Shown here in pieces: positions 2,917-64,000 of a stretch of 64,000 nucleotides of DNA. The DNA lies in NCBI GenBank assembly GCA_951406725.2, contig OX597817.1, positions 44,392,001 through 44,456,000 of the forward strand, in the 5' to 3' direction. The DNA comes from Octopus vulgaris (taxonomy: Eukaryota). A model generated the notes under the pieces. That model was not told where the DNA came from, did not search any database, and saw only the letters and a program-made list of their open reading frames with translations. The position numbers and the translations under genes are program-made. Every line of letters begins with the position of its first letter. The stretch's first letter is position 1.

Positions 2917-3376
2917 TATATATATATATATATGCGTATATATATATATATATGCGTATATATGCGTACGAGACGTCGCCAATGGTGCAAATAACATGAA
3001 ATACGTAAACAAACGAATTAAATACATAAATAACGAGAAGAAAATGGAAAACAGGACAAGTAAACTCAAAGCAAATATATTTATATATATATAGAGAGAG
3101 AGATGCGGTAGAAATGCTTCTTGTGCATGGTATGTAAATTCCGGTAGGAGTTCATATTTTCTCATTACAAATGGAAAGTATGGAGACGTAGATTCTATGT
3201 GCTGTTTATTCAAAGGGGTCTTGTGGTTTGAATGAAATTTTGAGAATGCCGTAGTAGTATTGAGTTAATAGAGAGGAGAGAAATTGGAACGAAAACAATT
3301 GCATCGTGGAAGGTGTTTATAAGCCATTTAAGAAACTCACAAAAACCGTTAGATTCACTTCAACAGTTAAATTTAA

Positions 3377-3427
3377 TTTGTCAAAATATTTTCGTCGCTT
3401 TGAGACCACGACCTGTTCCCTGACAAA
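3377..3427 (-). ncRNA. minimal hammerhead-ribozyme-like fold, G3-C8 variant
   Basis: Minus strand: TTTGTCA-GGGAACA-G-GTCG...CGAC-GAAA-ATAT-TT-TGACAAA. Stem I is 7 bp and stem III is palindromic. U4 is G in this copy. Confidence 0.5.
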
Positions 3428-3461
3428 ATTCCGTGCTGCATCTCTGTTTAAATATATATAT

Positions 3462-3520
3462 ATAACTGAAGAGATGGTGGCGTGGATTTCCACCTCGGCA
3501 TCCGAAACTCAGAGTTTTAT
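3462..3520 (+). ncRNA. minimal type I hammerhead-ribozyme-like fold
   Basis: ATAA-CTGAAGA-GATG...CATC-C-GAAA-CTCAGAG-TT-TTAT, at the start of a segment of about 165 bp (3462-3625) bounded by (TA)n tracts. Confidence 0.55.
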
Positions 3521-7609: not shown

Positions 7610-8070
7610 GGGATCTTTTCCGTTTGATCGGCAGTTTTTTAAAATAATTTCCACGTAACTAAACACTTTTAAACTTCGTATATTGGTAGAATGTGTTTAT
7701 AAAACATCTTTTTCTCTTGGCTTTATTGAGAAAATTCTATTGTTTGTAAGATATTTGTTAGTTTTTTTTCTTCAATTTCTGCAATTTCAACCAATCAATG
7801 ACGTCTATTGAGGTGAAAACATTCTGTGCCGTATGAATATGTCCCTCGTTTAAGAAACAGATTGGGTTTATTTACATTTCTGAAGAAAAAAGATACCCTT
7901 CCCCTATCCTAACCCTAACCCTAACCCTAACTAACCCTAACTGACCCTAACTCTAACCCTAACCCTAAAACAGATTGAAATGCAATAGATCAATACTAGG
8001 GTCATAATTATGGATAACAATTTCATATGACACCGCTAGAAAAAACTGCCGTTAAAACCGAAAAGATCCC
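7610..8070. mobile_element. non-autonomous DNA transposon (MITE), 31-bp TIRs, 6-bp TSD, internal telomere-like repeats
   Basis: TIRs GGGATCTTTTCCGTTTGATCGGCAGTTTTTT and AAAAAACTGCCGTTAAAACCGAAAAGATCCC. AGAGTA at 7604-7609 and 8071-8076. (CCCTAA)n at about 7902-7968. Confidence 0.9.
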
Positions 8071-12039: not shown

Positions 12040-13217
12040 TTATGGATATGTTGCAGATACTTATTTTCGATCGCTATTGTCTGCAGTCCTCTTCTGTTCG
12101 TGATTTTCTTCAGCTAAATAAGGCGGCGAGCTAGCAGAATCGTTAGGACGCCGGGCGAAATGCGTAGCCGTATTTCGTCTGCCGCTACGTTCTGAGTTCA
12201 AATTCCACCGAGGTCGACTTTGCCTTTCATCCTTTCGTTGTCGATTAAATAAATACCAGTTACGCACTGGGGTGATTATAATCGACTTAATCCGTTTGTC
12301 TGTCCTTGTTTGTCCTCTCTGTGTTTAGTCCTTTGTGGGTAGTAAAGAAATCGGTATTTCGTCTGCTGCTACGTTCTGAGTTCAAATTCCACCGAGGTCG
12401 ACTTTGCCTTTCACTCTTTCGGGGTCGATAAATTAAGTACCAGTTACGCACTGGGGTCGATGTAATCGACTTAATCCCTTTGTCTGTCCTTGTTTGTCCC
12501 CTCTGGGTGTAGCCCCTTGTGGGCTGTAAAGAAATAGATATTCTTCAGCTAAACTAGAGTTTGAACATAGAATCTTTAAACAATTTGATCTTCTAGTCCA
12601 ACCGAGGGTCTATTACTCCGAAGACGATGGTTTTATCGTTGCAAAGTCTTTAATTATCGAACTAAAGCATTTGTCTCCATAATGCTAGAGTATATCGGAT
12701 CTTTGCCGGAGAGACATAATTTAGATGCTTTAAACTGTACAATTAATTCTACAGATAGCGGGTTTCTATAGTTTGCGTGTAATCTGACGAGAAAGGCTTG
12801 GTTGTGATTACATTAAAGATTACAAACCCGAATAATATTAGAAATAGTTATTCTTCAGTTCTTACAATCGCTCCGAAGTTCGCCCCATCGTTCCTTCAAA
12901 ATAATTTTATAGCAACTCTAAATACATTTTCTGTTATTGCCGTTTGCATTAAATCACGTGCCTCGCTGTATCATGCGTAAACATTATCATGTAAAACAAT
13001 TGCTATTAATGTTAAGAACAGTTAACTTACAAGATGGCCCTATAAATAACGTCCCTACACTGGAAGGAGAGTTAATGATGTCGTTCCATAAAGAAACTGC
13101 AATGAAATCGATAATGATGCTCCAGAGAGTCACAAATCTAGATTCGTATCTCATCAATTCCGAGATAATTCTGTTCATTAAAACCCTTGATTCATGAGAT
13201 TAATTAAACTAAGTCAG
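12040..13217 (+). pseudogene. possible decayed cadherin-repeat coding remnant split by a SINE
   Basis: Across shifting frames and stops: ADTYF...KLEFEHRIFKQFDLLVQ; EYIGSLPER...TINSTD; FAPSFLQNNFIATL; INNVPTL...SFHKE...VTNLDSYLINSEII. The order resembles cadherin repeat motifs. Donor-like CAG|GTGAGG at 13217. Confidence 0.35.
12120..12540 (+). mobile_element. family C SINE dimer (tRNA-like head plus Meta-domain-like core)
   Basis: Head AAGGCGGCGAGCT, B box GTTCAAATTCC, core GACTTTGCCTTTCATCCTTTCGGGGTCGAT...AAGTACC, two units of about 184 nt. TSD TTCTTCAGCTAAA at 12106-12118 and 12541-12553. Confidence 0.9.
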
Positions 13218-14580: not shown

Positions 14581-15142
14581 GTATATGTATGTATGTATGT
14601 ATGTAAGTATGTATGTATTTGTGTATGTGTGCCGTGTATAAACATTTGGAAATAGATTACTTTAATTGGCAATATAGATTATGTGACATTTTAAATTTTC
14701 CTCAGAATGTTGAATATATCTTTCACTGGATAACAACCTCCAACATAAACATTTCGTCTTTGAACAACTACATTACTCTTGTGTGTGTATACGTGCATGT
14801 ATGAGATGTCGACAATGAGATAATTGGAATGAAGCATTGGGTATATATTTTCGAATTTCTCACTAATATAGAAAGCATTGATAACAAGCCCAGAAATAAG
14901 ATTCTTTTCTCAGAGCCTTATTTCTGTAAGCAATAACCATTTGGTTTTTATACATGTTTGTCTGTAACTTTGTATGTATGTTGCATATTGCTAACTGCAA
15001 ACTTGTGTAAGCTTGTTCATCTGTACATATATGTATGCGTATGCATTCATACCACTGACATACATATGTTGACACACACATACACATGTACATGCACAAG
15101 CATGCACGTTTTGTGGTGTCTATATGTATGTATGTATGTATG

Positions 15143-15375
15143 TAAGTCTCGAGTTGCACATGAGAAAGTAAAGAGGGATGTCAAGAAGGGCATCGCTGTT
15201 ACACTTCCAGAAGGGAAGGGGCTTCCTTTGATTCTGACATGCAATGTCTGTGCAAGACCCTGCCTCAGTAAAGCTGGACTCATGAGTCATCTTCGTAGTC
15301 ATAAAACGAGACAGATGAGTGACAACCTTATTTATTTGCCCTAGGGTTGTATCATGCTGACAATTTCTGATAAGA
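15143..15375 (+). mobile_element. RTE LINE 3' fragment with C2H2 zinc finger
   Basis: SRVAHEKVKRDVKKG...CNVCARPCLSKAGLMSHLRSH in ORF 14958-15344. Homologous to 38840-39320. Confidence 0.75.
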
Positions 15376-18916: not shown

Positions 18917-18964
18917 AAACTATCGGTTCGGTAAGAGGAGTTTGATAACAGTACAAAGCTTAGA

Positions 18965-19382
18965 AAGGCGGCGAGCTGGCAGAAACGTTAGCACGCCGGG
19001 CGAAATGCTTAGAGGTATTTCGTCTGCCGTTACGTTCTGAGTTCAAATTCCGCCGAGGTCGACTTTGCCTTTCATCCTTTCGGGGTCAATTAAATAAGTA
19101 CCAGTTACGCACTGGGATCGATATAATCGACTTAATCCCTTTGTCTGTCCTTGTTTGTCCCCGCTGTGTTTAGCCTCTTGTGGGAAGTAAAGAAATAAGT
19201 ATTTCGTCTGCTGTTACGTTCTGAGTTCAAATTCCGCCGAGTTCGACTTTGCCTTTCATCCTTTCGGGGTCGATAAATTAAGTACCAGTTACGCACTGGG
19301 ATCGATGTAATCAACGTAAACCCCTTTGTCTGTCCTTGTTTGTCCACTCTACGTTTAGCCCCAAGTGGGCAAAAAAGAAATA
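18965..19382 (+). mobile_element. family C SINE dimer nested in a family D SINE
   Basis: Two units. TSD ACAAAGCTTA at 18953-18962 and 19383-19392. Confidence 0.9.
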
Positions 19383-19867
19383 ACAAAGCTTAAACGTTAC
19401 AAATAAGTACTAGGGTTGTTCGACCAGACCCTTTCAGGCGGTGTTCTAGCATGGCTGTAGTCCAATAACTGAAGCAAGTAAAAGATAGAAGAAATATTCC
19501 AATGACATACAGAACAATGACATAATTACTTTTAGTTAACAAATGAAGGCTTACAATTTGAATCCACTCTTAGGCCCTGTAAACGTCTTAGAATTCACCT
19601 TTACAAATTAAAATGCAATTGGAGATTAAACAACTTGAAATGCAGTGTATATATTATAACTACTGGAAATATAGATTGTGCATTAAAACTAATTATCAGG
19701 AATATTCTAATCTTTAATTACAATCCCCATTTCAGAGAGATTTCAATGTATATCTTTGCTAATATACTCAGATTATAAGATCAACAAGATAGTTAATAAG
19801 TAAACATATCTATACATGCATATGTACATGACAAATGCATGCATACATACATACATACATACATACA

Positions 19868-20931: not shown

Positions 20932-21185
20932 GGGTTGTTGATGATGTCATAAACAGCGGTGGATCAACCATTGAGCAAAATATGCACGAGCTTAGGGCGG
21001 CGATAGGGAGAGGCACTAAAGAAATGATTAGTTGTTTACGGCACAAAAGAAATGATTTGAAACTTGTTAAAGTAATATTTCTTGGCATAATGTTAACTCA
21101 GCATGTTACGACGGGCGAAATACCTCTAAGAAACTCGGCCTGTGTGCTAAATGACTCTGCCATATCGCCATCTTCCTTTGCTGCC

Positions 21186-21243
<58 letters not shown>

Positions 21244-21245
<2 letters not shown>

Positions 21246-23530
21246 ACTAGCTAACGTACGAAGATACATTCTCAACGCAAAAAAAATATCAGAAATAGAA
21301 ATAGAACGTCTAAAAGAAAAAATACACCAGGAAAATGTAGATAGAAGCCACACAACAATGCCCGATAATATAAACACTGAAACCGTAAAACACGAAGACA
21401 AACGTAACATTCCCAACAAACACGATGTAAACAAAAAACAACAAACCCAGACCGTAAGGATGCATAATAATACACGACAAACAGCAAGCCAAAACACGGC
21501 AAACAAACATATAAATAAGAAAGAAAGCGGCACAAATCTAAAACCTAGAGACAACAAAGGGGAGCCTAATGATTATGATAATATAAAAAGTAAAATAATC
21601 AAAGAAATGAAAACCACAGAGCTCAAAATGGACCACCGACCATATCTCCCAAAAATCAAAATAGACGAAACAACAACACCAATTATAAACAGCATAAACC
21701 TAGCCGTCACTGAACTAATAGCCACTGAAACAAAAAGCGATATCACTAAGCTAAATGACTTAGTATACGCAGCAGCCACTGCAGCCACAAAAGAAGCTGG
21801 ATACTCACTCAAACCCATCCAAACAGGAGTACCACCACCCAAACAATAAATAACATCCAAAGCAAAATACAAAAAATGAGAAAAGATATGTCGATTCTTA
21901 ATGAAATCAGTAGACAATCAACGCTACTGAGCAACAAAAAGAAAACAAAAATACTCCGCAAATATAACATCACAGAAAAATATTTACATGAGATAAAAGA
22001 AAAGCTGAAGCAAGATATCCTTGCCAAAGCACAAAGGATCCGCCGGTACGAGAAACGCCAACGCTTCTTTGAACAAAACAAAAAGTTCAACTCCAACCCC
22101 AAAAAGTTCTACCAAGAACTTGGCAAAAATAAAAAAGAAATCACTGCAGCACCAACGGTAGAAGAAGTGGAAGAATTCTGGAGAGAAATATGGTCGGCGA
22201 ACGAACAGCCAAAAAAAAAAAAAAAGAAGTATCAAAACAATAAACTCAGCATCTGAGCAACTTTGGACCCCCATAACAACTGAAGAGGTCACCCAGGCAC
22301 TGCAAAGACTAAGCAACTGGAAGGCACCTGGGCATGACAAGATCCCCAACTCCTGGTTGAAATATCTAACAGGAATGCACAAAAAGCTGGCTGAAAACCT
22401 TAACAGTATGCTAGCAGAGCCAGAGACAATGCCTGAATGGCTCACGAAGGGGAAAACCATCTTAATTCCCAAATCAAATGAGACAGCAAAACCAGAAAAC
22501 TACAGACCAATGATCTGTCTCCCTACAATGTACAAGGCATTTACTGCAGTGATATCGCAAAGGTTGAACAAGCACCTGGACGAAAACAACCTGTTTCCAG
22601 AAGAGCAGAAAGGATGCCGCAAAGGCTCATATGGCTGTAAAGATCAACTAATGATTAATAAAGCCATAACTGAAGACAGCCACAGAAAGAAGAAAGGCCT
22701 CAGTATGGCCTGGATCGACTAAAAAAAGGCGTTTGATAGCATCCCCCACACATAGATCCTCGAAACACTAGCCATTAACAAAGTAGCACCAACAATCATA
22801 AAATTCATAGGGCACTCTATGAATAAATGAGAAACAGTGCTACAGCTCCAAACAAAAGAGGGACTCATGAAAACCAAAACCATCCCCATTAGAAGAGGAA
22901 TATTCCAGGGAGACACGCTCTCCCCACTCCCTTTCTGCTTGGCACTGTCACCTCTATCTGATATGCTAAATAGAACTGGATGCGGATATAAATGTTACTC
23001 CAAAACGATCAGCCACCTTTTATATATGGATGACCTAAAACTATACGCTGCAAATGACAAACAGCTGGAAACACTATTGAAGACACACAGATAGAGAAAT
23101 TAAGGCCAACAGACCAGATATGGTTGTCAGAGATCATGAAGAAAAAAAATGCTTTCTAATTGATGTATCAATACCGGCAGATGACAACGTGTCTCTAAAA
23201 GAAATGGAGAAACTTTCAAAATACAAAGACCTGGAAATAGAGGTAACTAGAATGTGGAATCTAAAAACAGAAACAATTCCTATCGTAGTAGGTGCATTAG
23301 GCATGATAAAAAAATATTCAGACAAATACATATCAAAAACACCAGGACTTACAAACACATATAACATACAGAAAATTGCACTACTAGGCACTGCACACAT
23401 CCTACGCAGAACACTTTCCATGCAATAACCATCAGAGCATCACAACAAATCACAGCACATACCTAAGGCACACAGAGCTGCGCTCGGTACTGAAGTGAAA
23501 GCACGCTATAAAAATAAAACTACTGAATGA
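21244..23530 (+). mobile_element. R4/Dong-clade non-LTR retrotransposon (RT plus restriction-like endonuclease), 5'-truncated and inactivated
   Basis: NWKAPGHDKI, PENYRPMICL, EQKGCRKGSYGCKDQL, AWID*KKAFDS, GIFQGDTLSP, YMDD (23023-23034), then RPDMVVRD...LIDVSIP...EKLSKYKDL...LGTAHILRR. Several stops and frameshifts. (AAT)n on both flanks. Confidence 0.92.
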
Positions 23531-26593: not shown

Positions 26594-28340
26594 TATTTCT
26601 CAGATGTTGTGAAGTATATATTTAACCAGTGACTTTCAAGCGATAGCTAGTAAAAACAATGACAAAAAGCGAAAGTCAAATTTGAAACTGTAATCGTAAA
26701 ATGGTTTCTATAAGGCCTTTTCTTTCATTTTCATCTACGTATTATATATATCACCGCTCGAAATCTCACAGCCGCTTTGTAAATATTCTATTTTGAAGAT
26801 TAGCACAAGCTTCCTATCTAACATTTTGTATGGTTATATTGGATACATGCACTTAGTTCAATCATATCTACTATCGACGTTTAAATAAAGCAAGTTGAAT
26901 GAAAAATATAGTTTTAACGATGCATGCAAACTGTTCCAACTGATATTTTTATAAACAAATTCATGCGATAAATAGAGTCCATCGTTTGACCTTTCACGAA
27001 CAGATGTATTTATCAATGATTGATTCGTTATATTAACCTTTCCCCATAATAATCTATTGGCAGTTCTCGTCACCTCGATAACCCAAAGCATATAGATTGG
27101 TGCCATGCCCAGAAACACATCAAGCCGCATGCAACAGATTTTATCTCTGGACAGTTGGCCGAGTAAACTAATATTATAATTGTACGGCGATTTATTCTCA
27201 CAAATACATACATAGAAAGATTCAAAAGATTCTCTGTCTGAGATTCTTTAGGAGAAAAGATGCACATACTTGGATGCGTGCATCGACGGTTGAACTAACA
27301 CATCAACTCAGCCACTCATTTCTAAACACCGGGAACTCTCTTAACTCATAAAGACTTGTCACTTCATTAGCAACCGGCTTGAACTCACTTGAGAAAAACT
27401 TAATTAAAACTCAATGAAAAAACATGTACGCATACATACATACATTTATCATTTAAGTATATGAACATGACTAGATATGCAAATATATACATGAGAAGAC
27501 TTACATAAAACAGAAGATACAGGTCTGCAGGTATGCATGAATACATACATACATACATACATACATACATACATACATACATACATACATACATAACCTG
27601 TTGTTGATGTTGAAATTTTGATGAAGGAACCTTGGATCTAAGTTAGAAACCAGCTCTTTCTCTATTGGCAAGAAATCTTGAAATAAAACTGAAAAATGTC
27701 GTACATACACACACACATACATACATACATACATAAATACATACATACACTATATAGGTATTTATATATGTATGTTTGTATATCTTGGCGTGTAAACAAT
27801 TCCTGAGTATGGCTTTAAACTGCATCAACTAGTGGGGACTTGGTATGGGAGTTTTTCAAGAGTGTGGAACCATCTCTTAACCACGGTTTTCCCCAGGTCT
27901 ACTCTGACCCGGAATTGTAGGACCTATCATGATCTTAGCTAAGTGTTAACTACCATGCGAACCACTAGACGTGAAGGATCCTAGTTCTTGTTAGAATTTC
28001 CTTCCAGAGAAGGCAAGCTCGTATAAAAGCCCAAAAGTGTAGTCGGTTCCTAGTAGTCTCAACCTCTGTTGTGCCATCGGTTTTATAGCCGGTTTCGCAG
28101 AAAAGGGATGCGGTGCTGTGCAACATTCTATTCACTCAAAACAAATTCCCGCACAGGAAGTTCTTAGATACTTGGAACAATTGTATAGGCTAACTGAGCA
28201 TATACACATGCGCAGAAAATGTTGCTATAGGAACCAGTCTGCTTCAGCTACATGACGGCGACTGGTTGCTATAGCTACAACAATCTGTGGAAGTCACCTT
28301 ACTCCTTTATCCCTCACACATCTGAGCAACAGGTTTTCCA

Positions 28341-28382
28341 AATGTCCTGATGAAGGGGTCATAAACCCGAAATATAGAAATT
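28341..28382 (+). ncRNA. minimal type I hammerhead-ribozyme-like fold (C3-G8)
   Basis: AATGTC-CTGATGA-AG-GGG-TCATAAA-CCC-GAAA-TA-TA-GAAATT. Stem I has 5 of 6 pairs. About 65 bp upstream of (TA)n. Confidence 0.6.
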
Positions 28383-28447
28383 CAAAGTGAAACTGCAGCT
28401 TTGTACCTTTTCGCATTGTTCTGGTTTTACTCAACAAACCTCTTTAA

Positions 28448-28485
<38 letters not shown>

Positions 28486-28544
28486 AAGGGTGAAAAGGAA
28501 CACACAAGTCAAAATAGAAAATACTAAAATAATTTTATAAAGAA

Positions 28545-28592
28545 CATTTCAGTACCGGTTTCGGTCATTTTGAGACCTTTTCAACTGTAACG
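28545..28592 (-). ncRNA. minimal type I hammerhead ribozyme, U3-A8 variant
   Basis: Minus strand: CGTTACAG-TTGAAAA-GGTC-TCAAAAT-GACC-GAAA-CCGG-TA-CTGAAATG. Stem I has 7 of 8 pairs, stem II is 4 bp, stem III is the palindrome ACCGGT, cleavage triplet GUA. Confidence 0.7.
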
Positions 28593-28959
28593 ATTAAATA
28601 ATTAAATTTAGAAAAATTAAAAGAAAAGTTTTTTTAAAGGAATATTTGTATAGTGTTTAAATATAAGTGGCATTCTGCCTTTCTCTGTCTCCCTTGTTTG
28701 CACTTGTGTGTTCGAGGCCGTTGTGAATTCTTTGTAGGGTAGAAGAAGAAGAAGGTTGATGAGGAGAGGGAGTGGACAAATTTGGGAGTGCCTTGATGGT
28801 CGTATTTTGAATGGTCAGTGGCGGCTAGCAGTTGCAGTTCAATTCAGGAGAATATTTCTATTGAAAGGTTTGTTTATGGAATTTGAGTAGGTGTTATACT
28901 AAAAAGCATTAGTGATAAAGTTAAGAGGTAGAAGGTGAAGAAGAAGAAGATATATATAC

Positions 28960-28991
<32 letters not shown>

Positions 28992-38528: not shown

Positions 38529-38738
38529 AGTGTGTTTATATGTGTGTTTGTATGTGTGTGTATGTGTGTGTGTGTCTGTAAGTATGTATGCATATATATA
38601 TACACACGCGCATGCATGTACGCACACACACACACACACACATATAATCAATTGAAATAAACGAATAAAGTTGACAGACAGCAAGAAGAATGTACACTCG
38701 GAATGTATTAGTTTGACGCTCAGTGTATAAAGAAGGAG

Positions 38739-38771
38739 TCTGACGTTTCGAGCATAGCTCTTCGTCGGAAA
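38739..38771 (-). ncRNA. minimal hammerhead-like fold of PLE type
   Basis: Minus strand: TTT-CCGACGA-A-GAGC-TAT-GCTC-GAAA-CG-TC-AGA. U4 is C and stem I is short. Lies in a repeat (38650-38835) with a related fragment at 57610-57680. Confidence 0.55.
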
Positions 38772-38839
38772 GGAGAAAGAGAAACGTCTGAAGAAGTAAA
38801 AGAAATCGCCAACAACACGTGTGTAGTTACATTGTATAG

Positions 38840-39320
38840 ATACATTTATATATGGCGAACAAGGGTGTGGAGTGGAGTGAAAGAGTTTGAAGAGGACAGG
38901 ATAATGCATGCAAAACTGAAGAGAGATTTCAAGAAGAATGTTACGACCGAGAAGGTGAATCACAATGAACTTTTTGTTTGCACGGTTTGTGACAGACCAT
39001 GCCTTTCTTTTGCTGGGCTCAAATCTCATTTCCAAACCCATAGAAAACGAACCTCCACCAACTATTCTGCCTATATATCTGTGCACACCTTTCAGAAGGT
39101 TTGTAAATCTAACGGAGGCCTCAAAAGACATTTTAAGATCCACAAAGATCATAACTTATCTGCGGCTCTTGGTCGTCCAAATTGGAGGTGCAATCTATGT
39201 GGGCTGTCTTTTCAAAACATTGTCTGGTTTTAAAAGCTACATCAGATGCTGTGATGGTTCGAAGGTGTCAGTACAGGAGGTGGTCAAACTCTGCATAATG
39301 AGTAGACAACCACCAAGTAT
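38840..39320 (+). mobile_element. RTE LINE 3' end with three C2H2-like fingers and a (TATG)n tail
   Basis: WRTRVWSGVKEFEEDR...CTVCDRPCLSFAGLKSHFQTH...KVCKSNGGLKRHFKIH...CNLCGL, then a short UTR and (TATG)n at 39317-39420. Confidence 0.8.
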
Positions 39321-49269: not shown

Positions 49270-50070
49270 ACTCGGTCGTTGACGCCCTGATTTTGTTTGT
49301 AGTTCAATGTGGATGAAAATGGAGATATTTGATGACACCGTCACAGGCATAAGGAAATCTGTCGGGGATGTTTGAGTTATTGGAGGTGAATTGTAGTGGA
49401 GAGTAGACTTCGTTGAGGAATGGCATAAATCGGATGATTTCTTCACTAGTGAAAGTTGTTGCGAATTTATTATCACAGATGTAATGTCAGAATAGATCCG
49501 AGTTACACCAATGTTTGTTTAATGTAAATACAGTTTCTTCAATCTGGCGTATAAATATATTCGTGCCATCATAGTTTTCATAATACCAACGTTAATCTGA
49601 GGTAAAGCTCGCCATGAATATAAGCAGTTTAGAGAGAAGTCATTATCAGGTAGCTAAAGGAAGGTGGTGGTACATCCACGCTCCCATCTATACTGATTAT
49701 ATTCTTTGGTTCGAATATGGGGAAGAAAACGAAGAGATGCTGAAAAGCAGATAGGCAATTATTGTGCAGGATCACAATCTATAAAGTTTCCCATTCTTAA
49801 CAATTGAGTATAGAAAGGTGAAAAATGGAAAAGAAATATACAGAGGATTTGAGATGAATGAGGCCCAGAAAATGTTGATATATGGAAATAGGGAGAGAAA
49901 AAATTAACTATGTAAGCATTTGGAGATATTTTGGAAACACGGTGAGTAGAATAATCTACATTGGGGGACAATAAAGCGACGAACCAGATTATTACGTTTG
50001 AGAATTTGGGGAGTAAGTTGTATATAGTGGCAGAGTGGTGAGTATTCAATATAAGGCTATTGGGCGTGAG
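49270..50070 (-). mobile_element. decayed Penelope-like element reverse transcriptase
   Basis: Ordered motifs across frameshifts: TIYNLLPKF (FYLLPKIHK), STHRVSK, SPFYTQ (SLYTNI), HGELYL, NIFIRQIEE, HYICD (RYIDD), RFMPFLNEVYSPLQFTS...FPY. Confidence 0.6.
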
Positions 50071-54802: not shown

Positions 54803-55219
54803 AAGGCGGCGAGCTGGCAAGAACGTTAGCGCGCCGGGCGAAATGTGTAGCTGTATTTCGTCTGCCGTTACGTTCTGAGTTCAATTTCCGCTGAGGTCGA
54901 CTTTGCCGTTCATCCTTTCGGGGTCGATAAATTAAGTACCAGTTACGCACTGGGGTCGATGAAATCGACTTAATACGTTTCTCTGTCCTTGTTTGTCCCC
55001 TCTGTGTTTAACCTCTTGTGGGTAGTAAAGAAATAGGTATTTCGTCTGCCGCTACGTTCTGAGTTCAAATTCCGTCGAGGTCGACTTTGCCTTTCATCCT
55101 TTCGGGGCCGATAAATTAAGTACCAGTTACGCACTGGGGTCGATGAAATCGACTTAATCCGTTTGTCTGTCCTTGTTTGTCCTCTTTATGTTTAGCCCCT
55201 TGTGAGCAATGAAGAAATA
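54803..55219 (+). mobile_element. family C SINE dimer
   Basis: TSD ATATAAATAATGGCTCGTC at 54784-54802 and 55220-55238. Confidence 0.92.
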
Positions 55220-55667
55220 ATATAAATAATGGCTCGTCGGATACGTTGGTTTTGAAATATGTAAGACCATGCGGTAGTTCGGACTGAGACTTTGCTTAAA
55301 ATTCACTTTGTTGTAATGTCTCTCATTATAAAATAAAGACAAAATGAAAACTGACGTGTTTGTAGTCATTGTGTTACATGTTCTCATAACAAGAAATTTA
55401 AATGGCAACTGGCCAATCTCAACGAGCAGAATCACTCCAGTGTGCATGCCTAGTCGCTATTAGTAACTGTCTATCATCTTATTTTTCTTTAGACATTCGC
55501 ATTCCAGCTGTTTTACAAGGTTCATTTATTTTACAAATTGTGATGATCTTCACTCTGATGGTTCCTGTTTCAGACGTCTCCCAGAAACATGATTGACAAC
55601 GTAAATATAGTCTACAAGTTTAAGATAATACTTATTGACTTATTTATTTTGTCTATTTTATTTGCAG

Positions 55668-59457: not shown

Positions 59458-60015
59458 CGGGTTTCAAATTTTGGCACAAGGCCGAAATTTTAGGGGAGGG
59501 GATGAGTCGATTTCATCGACCCGAGTGTTCAACTGGTACTTATTTTATCGACCCCGAAAGGATGAAAGGTAAAGTCAACTTCAGCGAAATTAAAACTCAG
59601 AACGTAAAGACAGACGAAATACCTATTTCTTTACTACCCACAAGGTGCTAAACACAGAGAGGACAAACAAGCACAGACAAACAGATTAAGTCGATTTCAT
59701 CGACCCCAGTGAGTAACTGGTACTAAATTTATCGACCCCGAAAGGATGAAAGGCAAAGTCGATCTCGGCGGAATTTGAACTCAGAACGTAAAGACAGACG
59801 AAATACCTATTTCTTTACTACCCACAAGGGGCTAAACACAGAGAGGACAAACAAACACAGACAAACGGATTAAGTCGATTACATCGACCTCAGTGAAAAC
59901 TGGTACTTAATTTATCGACCCCGAAAGGATGAAAGGCAAAGTCCACCTCAGCGGAATTTGAACTCAGTACATAACGGCAGACGAAATACGGCTACGCATT
60001 TCGCCCGGGCTACTA
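59458..60015 (-). mobile_element. family C SINE trimer
   Basis: Three cores with a period of 184 nt (junctions at 59616 and 59800). The last unit ends in the alternative tail. Confidence 0.9.
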
Positions 60016-60415
60016 ACGATAATAAAAATAACAAATACAATAAAAAAAATAACACAAAAAGAAAAAAAGACAAAACAATAACACGCTGCTAATCAAGGAA
60101 AATCTTGAGCAAATCCACTGGCACCTTCTCTTTCCCAGTGAGAGCTCGTGGCACGAAATATTAGAAGCATACGTGTAATCTATAGAGAACGACCTAAACT
60201 GGGGTTCAGACAAAATATGATAAAAAAGACATGATCAGTACAATGTGTTTGTGAAAACCTAGAGCTTATTCTTCCCTAATCTACAATCACCCACACATTA
60301 ATTAGCCCTATCCTCTCCAACACCATTATGAGCACTACATCATTTGCACAATGAGGAAGTTATTGTAACATTATTGCCAGTTTCATTTTCAATTTCTTTT
60401 AGTATTTTAGATAGT

Positions 60416-62434: not shown

Positions 62435-62837
62435 AAGGCAGCGAGCTGGCGGAAACGTTAGCACGCCGGGCGAAATGCTTAGCGGTATTTCGCCTGCCGT
62501 TATGTTCTGAGTTCAAATTCCGCAGAGGTCGATTTTGCCTTCCATCCTTTCGGGGTCGATAAATTAAGTATCAGTTACGGACTGGGGTCGATATAATCGA
62601 CTTAAATCGTCTGTCTGTCCTTGTTTGTCTCCTGTGTTTAGCCCCTTGTGGGTAGTAAAGAAATATGTATTTCGTCTGCCGTTACGTTCTGAGTTCAAAC
62701 TCCGCCGAGGTCGACTTTGCCTCTCATCCTTTCGGGGTCAATATATTAAGTACCAGTTACGCACTGGGGTCGATCTAATCGACTTAGTTCCTTTGTTTGT
62801 CCCCTCTATTTAGCCCCTTGTGGCCATTAAAGAAATA
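62435..62837 (+). mobile_element. family C SINE dimer
   Basis: Two units, junction at 62660-62673. Confidence 0.9.
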
Positions 62838-63480
62838 AGAAGGCTTTCCTCACAAATCACTGATGTGCTCAGTAGTCTATCGTAGTCCGAAAAAGATGTT
62901 TCAGCAATTTTTGCCGAACAAACTACACAAATGATTCATTTATAGTGATGGAATGTTTGTGCCATACATTACCTTATTCACTCCGCAAAATCGATTTTTC
63001 CTGAAAAGGTGCACTGTGTACCGCAAGTCTGGTGTCGAAGTGATCGCAGACCAGCGTGAGATGAAGTGTTCTGCTCAAAACTACAATCACCATCCGGTCC
63101 AGGAATTGAAATCACGACCTCGCGATCGTAAGTTTAACAACCTACCCATTTGTCCATGAGAAATCACACACCCAAATTATATAAACAATGCCTTTACTCT
63201 TCTCGTATTCAGCGCAACGTAAACTGTACAATGTTTGAATTTGTTTCAGTTCTTTCGAATTACACAATATAATGTATGGGTGTTTGTGTGTATATACGTG
63301 TGTGTGGATTTGTGTGTGTATGTATGCATAGTTTTAAAAAGAGACACAGAACATATAGTATTTTATGCTTTTTAAAACTTACAACTGTTTCGGGATTGCA
63401 TAATTTCTGGTTGAAACACATAATCTTATTAAGCCTTCTCATTATCATTGTTTATCCAAAGATAAAGACAATGGTGTTAA

Positions 63481-64000
63481 ATACTCAGCCTCGGTAATGA
63501 CATCCCGGTCTCACGCCATTTCCGCTCTACCGGTCACTCTTTGCAACCCCTGTCCATGTTCGGATTGTTCTTGCACAGAGGCCATCCTGAGTCCCGTTTG
63601 CGCCGTGAACATGGATTAATCTTCTCTCTTCGCTCCTTTATGCCATAAGAGCTCAACTCTCCTCTCCTCTTCCTCTAGTCTCCTCACCTTGCCTCTCTCC
63701 TCCTCCCTCCTACTTTTTCCCACCCACCTCTCCTCTCTTGCTCCGACTCCTACTTCTCTTCACTCCTACTTCTCTTCACCCCTACTCTCTTTCTCTCTTC
63801 TCTCTTACACTCTTTCTCTCTTCTCTCTTACTCTCTTTTTCTCTTCTCTCTTACTCTCTTCTCTCATACCCACCTTCCCCTTCCTACTTCATCGTCAACC
63901 CTCCCCTATAAGCCCACTCCACCCCTACGCATTCTTACTCCACCTTCCCTATCCTTCCCATCCAACCCCATCCCATCCCTCACACCTTCTTCCACATACC
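63481..64000 (+). mobile_element. Penelope-like element 3' part: GIY-YIG C-terminus plus CT-rich tail (runs off the window)
   Basis: 63481-63660 translates to DIPVSRHFRSTGHSLQPLSMFGL...RLRREHGLIFSLRSFMP*ELN, matching the PLE endonuclease end PVARHF...HS...R..RE..LI..L....P.GLN. Not in the ORF track. Confidence 0.75.

Follow-up and report, generated by a model that had tools for sequence, protein, structure and literature searches.

Type I hammerhead ribozymes in the pseudo-LTRs (pLTRs) of Penelope-like elements (PLEs) are the closest described counterparts of the motifs that we report here. In the available portion of the survey by Cervera and de la Pena (2014, PMC4209133), the metazoan PLE consensus comprises CUGANGA, an optional base before position 10.1, a G10.1-C11.1 pair, GAAA, a palindrome, an NUH cleavage site, and U-rich or AU-rich flanks. 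The same portion reports about 1,300 U3-A8 motifs in Schistosoma mansoni, gives UUGAAAA for S. mansoni(4), a full Cercyon PLE, describes several families per genome and opposite-strand hammerhead pairs 100 to 700 bp apart, and finds that PLE hammerheads cleave at low levels and in dimers only. Natural U3-A8 covariation in several hammerheads that are active in vitro, together with palindromic stems III for dimers, is described in the sections available of Perreault et al. (2011, PMC3088659). An inhibitory C3-G17 pair has been proposed to trap hammerheads (accessible text of PMC3884650).

With respect to insertion targets, the part of Craig et al. (2021, PMC8557442) at hand reports (TA)n as the preferred target of Naiad, hypothesizes the same for Neptune, and lists two octopus Naiads with a (TA)n preference. 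According to the accessible part of a study of the Poseidon element of the anole (PMC11167929), this element cuts AT-rich DNA in vitro, where cleavage by its ribozyme needs protein; reverse transcription starts 111 to 118 nt into the ORF, and the ribozyme cut lies 26 nt into the ORF.

We analyzed a stretch of 64,000 nucleotides from Octopus vulgaris (the window), in which a preliminary description had noted two convergent hammerheads. The window is 37% GC (63% AT) and rich in microsatellites and short repeats, with SINEs that we take to resemble those of octopus. A SINE-like family with an internal 184-bp duplication and 85 to 90% identity lies at 12112-12542, 18957-19391, 54803-55223, 59624-60020, and 62435-62846, and an interstitial short run of telomere-like CCCTAA units lies at 7895-7968. 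We propose, with a probability of about 0.6, that the hammerheads are 5'-truncated pLTR ends of two unrelated PLE families, independently inserted tail to tail at one (TA)n tract.

Two hammerhead motifs at one (TA)n tract

Under a strict descriptor in which the 3-8 pair could be any Watson-Crick pair, the 64 kb yielded only two matches, one on each strand, against a mean of 0.22 in 100 local dinucleotide shuffles (0.02 at scores of at least 12). The relaxed descriptor gave four matches against 0.625 expected from 200 shuffles, and the three motifs with scores of at least 11 are above chance (0.025 expected). Rfam returned no match at the gathering score in the whole window; HH9 matched the minus-strand motif weakly (20.9 bits, E of 0.048, cutoff of 52), and the plus-strand motif had no match. 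Rfam hammerhead models are not known to be designed for minimal PLE motifs. The folding z-scores of the two motifs (-1.31 and -0.31) were not significant, as expected for motifs of only 45 nt. Pattern scans of viral contigs and metagenome contigs gave no matches.

The minus-strand motif (28545-28592, N3 at 28584) is a type I hammerhead with the core UUGAAAA and thus a U3-A8 pair. It has the N3-UGA-N-N8-A core with a Watson-Crick 3-8 pair, a 4-bp stem II, GAAA, the palindromic stem III ACCGGU, six of seven pairs in stem I, and an NUH site, GUA, with A17 at 28553, after which the cut is predicted. Both the strict and the relaxed scans recovered this fold, its site, and its palindrome, as they had been described. 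The motif had also been called a clean variant. Its fold is indeed present and intact, but predicted folds lengthen stem I through a U3-A17 pair (28584 with 28553), which speaks against that word. We predict that this pair is inhibitory, as an analogue of the proposed C3-G17 trap, so that the ribozyme may be slow or gated.

The plus-strand motif (28340-28383, N3 at 28347) is a weaker, minimal type I hammerhead. Its canonical CUGAUGA fold, first placed at 28341-28382, was found by both descriptor scans. It contains one inserted A, a 3-bp stem II, GAAA, the palindrome AUAU, and an AUA site with A17 at 28376, after which the cut is predicted; five of the seven stem I positions are paired, with a mismatch at the third. 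The short stem II and the mismatch make its agreement with the type I pattern weak, and its minimum-energy fold is not a hammerhead. A putative upstream body of the element (27784-28339) has a presumed left limit at a TA/TACA tract that ends at 27783. Within it, at 28220-28279, is a hairpin with 20-nt arms, each carrying a motif that, we presume, resembles an RFX X-box; the pattern, modeled on these very sites, matched twice, against no match in 100 shuffles. The region 28200-28450 has a folding z-score of -3.8. The hairpin is possibly an internal promoter of the plus element.

Both elements end at the same (TA)n tract (28449-28486), and the cut site of each lies 66 to 72 nt from it; for only 6.5% of window positions does a (TA)5 tract follow within the next 80 nt. 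On the minus side, a family 3' tail (28504-28552, 82% AT), which overlaps the 3' arm of stem I and is delimited by the loose ends of other copies, is followed by 17 nt (28487-28503) that, by contig alignment, are present in the window copy and absent from the loose-end consensuses listed. The whole minus tail is 74% AT, as expected from the claim that AT-rich tails lead to the tract. The claim fails for the plus tail (28384-28448), which, with 64% AT over 72 nt against 63% for the window, is not AT-rich for its surroundings. At its other end the minus copy is bounded by a TA/TG tract (28951-28991).

An alignment of the two elements scored 18, no better than shuffled sequences (20.7 +/- 2.5). 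Since the motifs lie on opposite strands, no single RNA has both in the sense orientation, and the most plausible account of their convergence is that two elements inserted into a shared preferred target. The locus holds neither a tandem repeat of the minus unit nor a head-to-tail hammerhead array of the kind found in non-LTR retrozymes.

Three further hammerhead-like motifs occur elsewhere in the window, and none of the five elements has a second copy there. The first (minus strand, 3376-3428, N3 at 3420; relaxed scan) is a degenerate hammerhead with a G3-C8 pair, U4 replaced by G, the palindrome AAUAUU, and seven of seven stem I pairs. The second (plus strand, 3466-3515), seen by eye and missed by both scans, is a remnant, CUGAAGA followed by GAAAC, that lacks a palindromic stem III. 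The third (minus strand, 38735-38775, motif at 38768; relaxed scan) is a degenerate minimal hammerhead with U4 replaced by C, the palindrome ACGU, and three stem I pairs. Intact cores in the window are therefore of the C3-G8 and U3-A8 types only, and the preliminary count of three different 3-8 pairs does not stand, as G3-C8 rests on one copy with a broken core. Nor does the position of these motifs beside dinucleotide tracts carry much weight. From the motifs at 3420, 3466, and 38768, (TA)n is reached on the 3' side after 291, 116, and 141 nt, respectively, but dinucleotide tracts are so common that 25% of window positions are no more than 130 nt away from one and 45% no more than 300 nt.

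Stem-loop II of the G3-C8 motif (3376-3428) contains a 9-nt string that recurs in stem-loop II of the U3-A8 motif (28560-28578), likewise on the minus strand, and the palindrome of each motif is 6 nt long, but the elements score no higher in alignment than shuffled sequences do (21 against 21.0). The roughly 290 nt between the motif at 3420 and the next TA tract (3097-3376, minus strand) are far longer than the other tails. This stretch could be the start of an ORF, as at a pLTR-ORF junction; a protein word search with it gave no match.

Coding remains of PLEs had been proposed at 49270-50070 (RT) and 63481-63660 (GIY-YIG), and no search (Pfam, word searches, or phmmer) confirmed either. Pfam, run on 21 frames, gave five matches only (E of 0.11 to 0.41), none to an RT or GIY-YIG family, and protein word searches for PLE relics found no match. 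The phmmer result for the RT relic was blank, a weak negative given that the query frame differed from the frame with the best RT-like motifs; presumably, these motifs resemble those of PLEs. No PLE reading frame is joined to either hammerhead in the window copy. Also present, at 21151-23428 on the plus strand, is a disrupted RT frame of the LINE type that ends in a restriction-like endonuclease, which we take to be a LINE, and short plus-strand frames with C2H2 zinc-finger-like motifs at 38712-39233 and 14937-15344 are presumably LINE 3' ends.

The minus-strand repeat family in public sequence runs

Public runs that contain the region come from four organisms. We compared the stretch 28481-28950 with contigs from 4 of the 24 runs listed, covering three organisms and leaving out runs with a share below 0.1; one of the four is presumed to be RNA. 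The numbers of fitting contigs were 3,604, 2,099, 365, and 1,139, spanning about 28497-28930. With hundreds to thousands of fitting contigs in all four runs, a high-copy family can be recognized that extends over at least 430 bp and includes the minus motif. As a rough estimate, the family would number thousands of copies, contig depth not being equal to copy number.

The preliminary description had staked its case on the fixation of U3 and A8, and this holds: neither base had a listed variant at or above 10% in the four runs. The same is true of the other unpaired core bases, stem III, and A17, among the 40 variant rows listed of 45 (threshold of at least 10%). The sole listed variant place within 28547-28592 is position 11.1, C to U, at 7 to 24% of depth. 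Variation among the listed variants was lower inside the ribozyme than outside it, 1 of 46 places against 37 of 381, which is not significant (P = 0.065). The U3-A8 hammerhead family is real and abundant.

In one run, 44 contigs form a sister group that retains the U3/A8 core, with A at position 10.1 and a different sequence upstream of stem I. The C-to-U variant at 11.1 (pair 28563/28577) may be the compensatory partner of this A10.1 rather than a product of CpG decay, since the remaining CpG positions (28562 and 28556-28557) have no listed variant.

The loose ends of the family fall at 28504-28511, a short fixed distance beyond the hammerhead, at AT-rich or microsatellite sequence. Among those listed, the sequence before 28504-28506 is (TA)n-like in three of the four runs (17, 4, and 23 contigs), whereas the remaining run has 47 contigs with mixed AT-rich sequence there. 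These ends place the 3' end of the family about 50 nt beyond the cut site, where it often meets (TA)n. Two opposite-strand joints were seen at 28569, in a single contig each.

The upstream part (28593-28950), which has high depth in all four runs, is apparently non-coding. It has stops in all three sense frames, most of them without a listed variant, and its listed variants fall at the three codon positions in the numbers 11, 9, and 12, with no excess at the third. Depth remains high up to about 28912 and then falls to 1 to 14% by 28929-28944. The ends of the compared stretch are crossed by few contigs (21, 26, 13, and 9) and are not among the places for which a strong loose end is listed. The drop at 28913-28944 coincides with a (GAA)n run and with the edge of the compared stretch. 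Two contigs still match to 28946-28950, one of them extending 13 letters beyond the edge, and the family may therefore continue further.

In the three runs not presumed to be RNA, the 3' part of the family is 2.4 to 6.6 times deeper than the 5' part. The presumed RNA run (X14) shows the reverse, a ratio of 0.31, with the 5' part deeper than the ribozyme part. We do not take this as cleavage or expression, because, relative to the DNA run of the same organism, depth is lowest at a point upstream of the cut site, and contig depth is no basis for ranking parts of the family.

Origin and predicted behavior of the elements

Several observations argue that the two elements are the truncated ends of PLEs. 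Their anatomy fits the published metazoan PLE consensus, UUGAAAA occurs in a full Cercyon PLE, the minus family keeps U3-A8, and its other copies also end at (TA)n. The deeper 3' part has the direction expected from 5' truncation. For the minus family taken by itself, membership in the PLEs is likely. Against the PLE-end reading, no PLE ORF is joined to the motifs here, and coding capacity is apparently absent from the 360 nt that precede the minus motif.

These last points lend themselves to another explanation, which we consider possible and clearly the less probable of the two, namely, that the U3-A8 family is a discrete, non-coding, dispersed element of about 450 bp, derived from a PLE pLTR and mobilized in trans by PLE protein as a SINE-like partner or solo retrozyme. 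The drop in depth and the scarcity of contigs crossing the edge fit a discrete 5' end equally well: a plateau ends near 28913-28944 and almost nothing continues into unlike sequence. The even codon-position counts, the largely invariant stops among those listed, the very high depth in three organisms, and the sister group in which the ribozyme is kept while the sequence upstream of stem I has changed all point the same way. The apparent end coincides, however, with the (GAA)n run and with the limit of the compared stretch; two contigs come up to or close to that limit, and one of them passes it by 13 letters. The greater depth of the 3' part is in keeping with truncation, the unit is not repeated in tandem here, and long non-coding pLTRs are normal in PLEs. 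A more specific version, which we regard as unlikely, would make the minus element a (TA)n-targeted, non-autonomous PLE partner with thousands of copies, gated by U3-A17 and cutting only as an ACCGGU trans-dimer of separate monomer RNAs, in other words, a dispersed self-gated retrozyme.

It is improbable that a non-PLE partner, either a LINE or an RNA circle of its own, moved the minus family, with the hammerhead captured or carried as a passenger. The lack of a confirmed PLE ORF and the frames at 21151-23428, which we take to be LINE-like, would suit such a partner, but the arrangement seen here, in which a minimal hammerhead with a palindromic stem III leads into a short tail of fixed length ending at (TA)n, is that of PLEs, and Rfam found no tRNA head. 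Least probable is a joint function of the convergent pair, such as that of a cassette whose two ribozymes would trim sense and antisense RNAs. The similar and uncommon spacing of both cut sites from one tract (66 to 72 nt, against the 6.5% background) is accounted for by a shared target preference, the elements are unrelated, their heterodimer gains 0.0 kcal/mol, and copies of the minus family elsewhere are flanked by mixed sequences.

If the elements are PLE ends, their hammerheads would be expected to act as dimers. Computed energies agree with this, both stems III being palindromic. The minus monomer is at -1.6 kcal/mol with stem III closed and at -6.8 with it open, and a swapped dimer reaches -23.5 kcal/mol against -18.2 for two monomers; the dimer is favored by 5 to 7 kcal/mol for the minus motif and by 1.8 for the plus motif. 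Our prediction is that stem III of the minus ribozyme cannot form in a monomer and that cleavage takes place in a dimer. Anatomy and computed dimer preference thus uphold the earlier view of these motifs as dimer hammerheads of the PLE type. The accompanying idea that different palindromes restrict dimer partners to one family fared less well. The minus homodimer is computed at -7.5 kcal/mol against 0.0 with each of the three other motifs, so homodimers are favored over heterodimers, but we reject palindromes as a general family lock because ACGU occurs in 29 of 56 published motifs, including two families of one species in six species. Literature searches found no paper on hammerhead U3-A17 and none on heterodimer tests of Penelope hammerheads; Lunse et al. 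2017 reportedly concerns PLE hammerhead dimers and may cover such tests as well as U3-A17 or G3-C8 families.

From the biology of PLEs, insertion could proceed as follows. The GIY-YIG endonuclease of the element would nick AT-rich or (TA)n DNA, and reverse transcription would begin at a fixed internal site shortly downstream of the hammerhead, so that even the shortest insertion would have hammerhead and tail. Most copies would stop early, before an ORF is included. Cleavage, probably slow and perhaps with the help of protein, would take place in a dimer of two sense copies transcribed from tandem or partial-tandem loci, and no cooperation would be expected between the plus and minus motifs of this locus.

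As an ordinary PLE end, the minus family would add one more family and a phylum-level example of U3-A8, and it would indicate that this variant can be carried by a very successful element. It also offers a natural test case for the role of PLE hammerheads in vivo and for whether U3-A17 traps the ribozyme as proposed for C3-G17.

Comparison with published systems

A literature search for octopus and hammerhead ribozyme gave, judging by titles, no paper on octopus hammerheads of this kind, and the available text of a paper on O. vulgaris repeats (PMC13282606) has no mention of 'ribozyme'. The proposal of an undescribed system is not supported, because U3-A8 with UUGAAAA, palindromic stem III, AU-rich flanks, opposite-strand pairs, and (TA)n targeting have all been published for PLEs.

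The nearest match is with the pLTR hammerheads of PLEs, among which S. mansoni families 3 and 4 have U3-A8 (PMC4209133, available portion). These resemble the minus motif in the type I fold, in UUGAAAA (S. mansoni 4), in the palindromic stem III, and in AU-rich flanks; they too are mostly single dispersed motifs, with several families per genome and opposite-strand pairs. The plus motif shares with them the inserted base before 10.1 and the palindrome AUAU, which is found in 5 of the 56 representative motifs counted in the part of the supplement at hand, where ACGU accounts for 29 and is common to two families of one species in six species. The minus motif differs in having no inserted base, in its 6-nt ACCGGU (0 of the 56), and in A17, which is absent from the three U3 rows of that part of the supplement; no row there is from a cephalopod. 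Unlike the published pairs, the pair described here is arranged tail to tail and comes from two families.

The Neptune, Nematis, and Naiad PLEs (PMC8557442, available part) are like the elements described here in their (TA)n target, heavy 5' truncation, and optional tail extension. Naiads, which have an N-terminal GIY-YIG, are described there as lacking canonical hammerheads, whereas those at this locus are full, and on this point the elements do not group with Naiad. Eight short motifs from our elements had no match in the available supplement text, whose long sequence runs are incomplete. The U3-A8 motifs of Perreault et al. (2011, PMC3088659) have the same compensatory pair as the minus motif and, in the sections available, are not tied to PLEs or to A17.

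Non-LTR retrozymes, in the accessible parts of Cervera and de la Pena (2020, PMC7229834) and of a preprint by Li, Clavereau and Pollet (2026), are, like the minus element here, short, non-coding, AT-rich, and of high copy number, carry a type I hammerhead, and are argued to derive from PLE pLTRs. They form head-to-tail tandem units of 150 to 450 bp and circular RNAs (PMC7229834), whereas each element here is single and neither a circle nor, at this locus, a tandem was seen. If the minus family turned out to be discrete and non-autonomous, the route from PLE to retrozyme argued for in the 2026 preprint would gain a clean, dispersed example.
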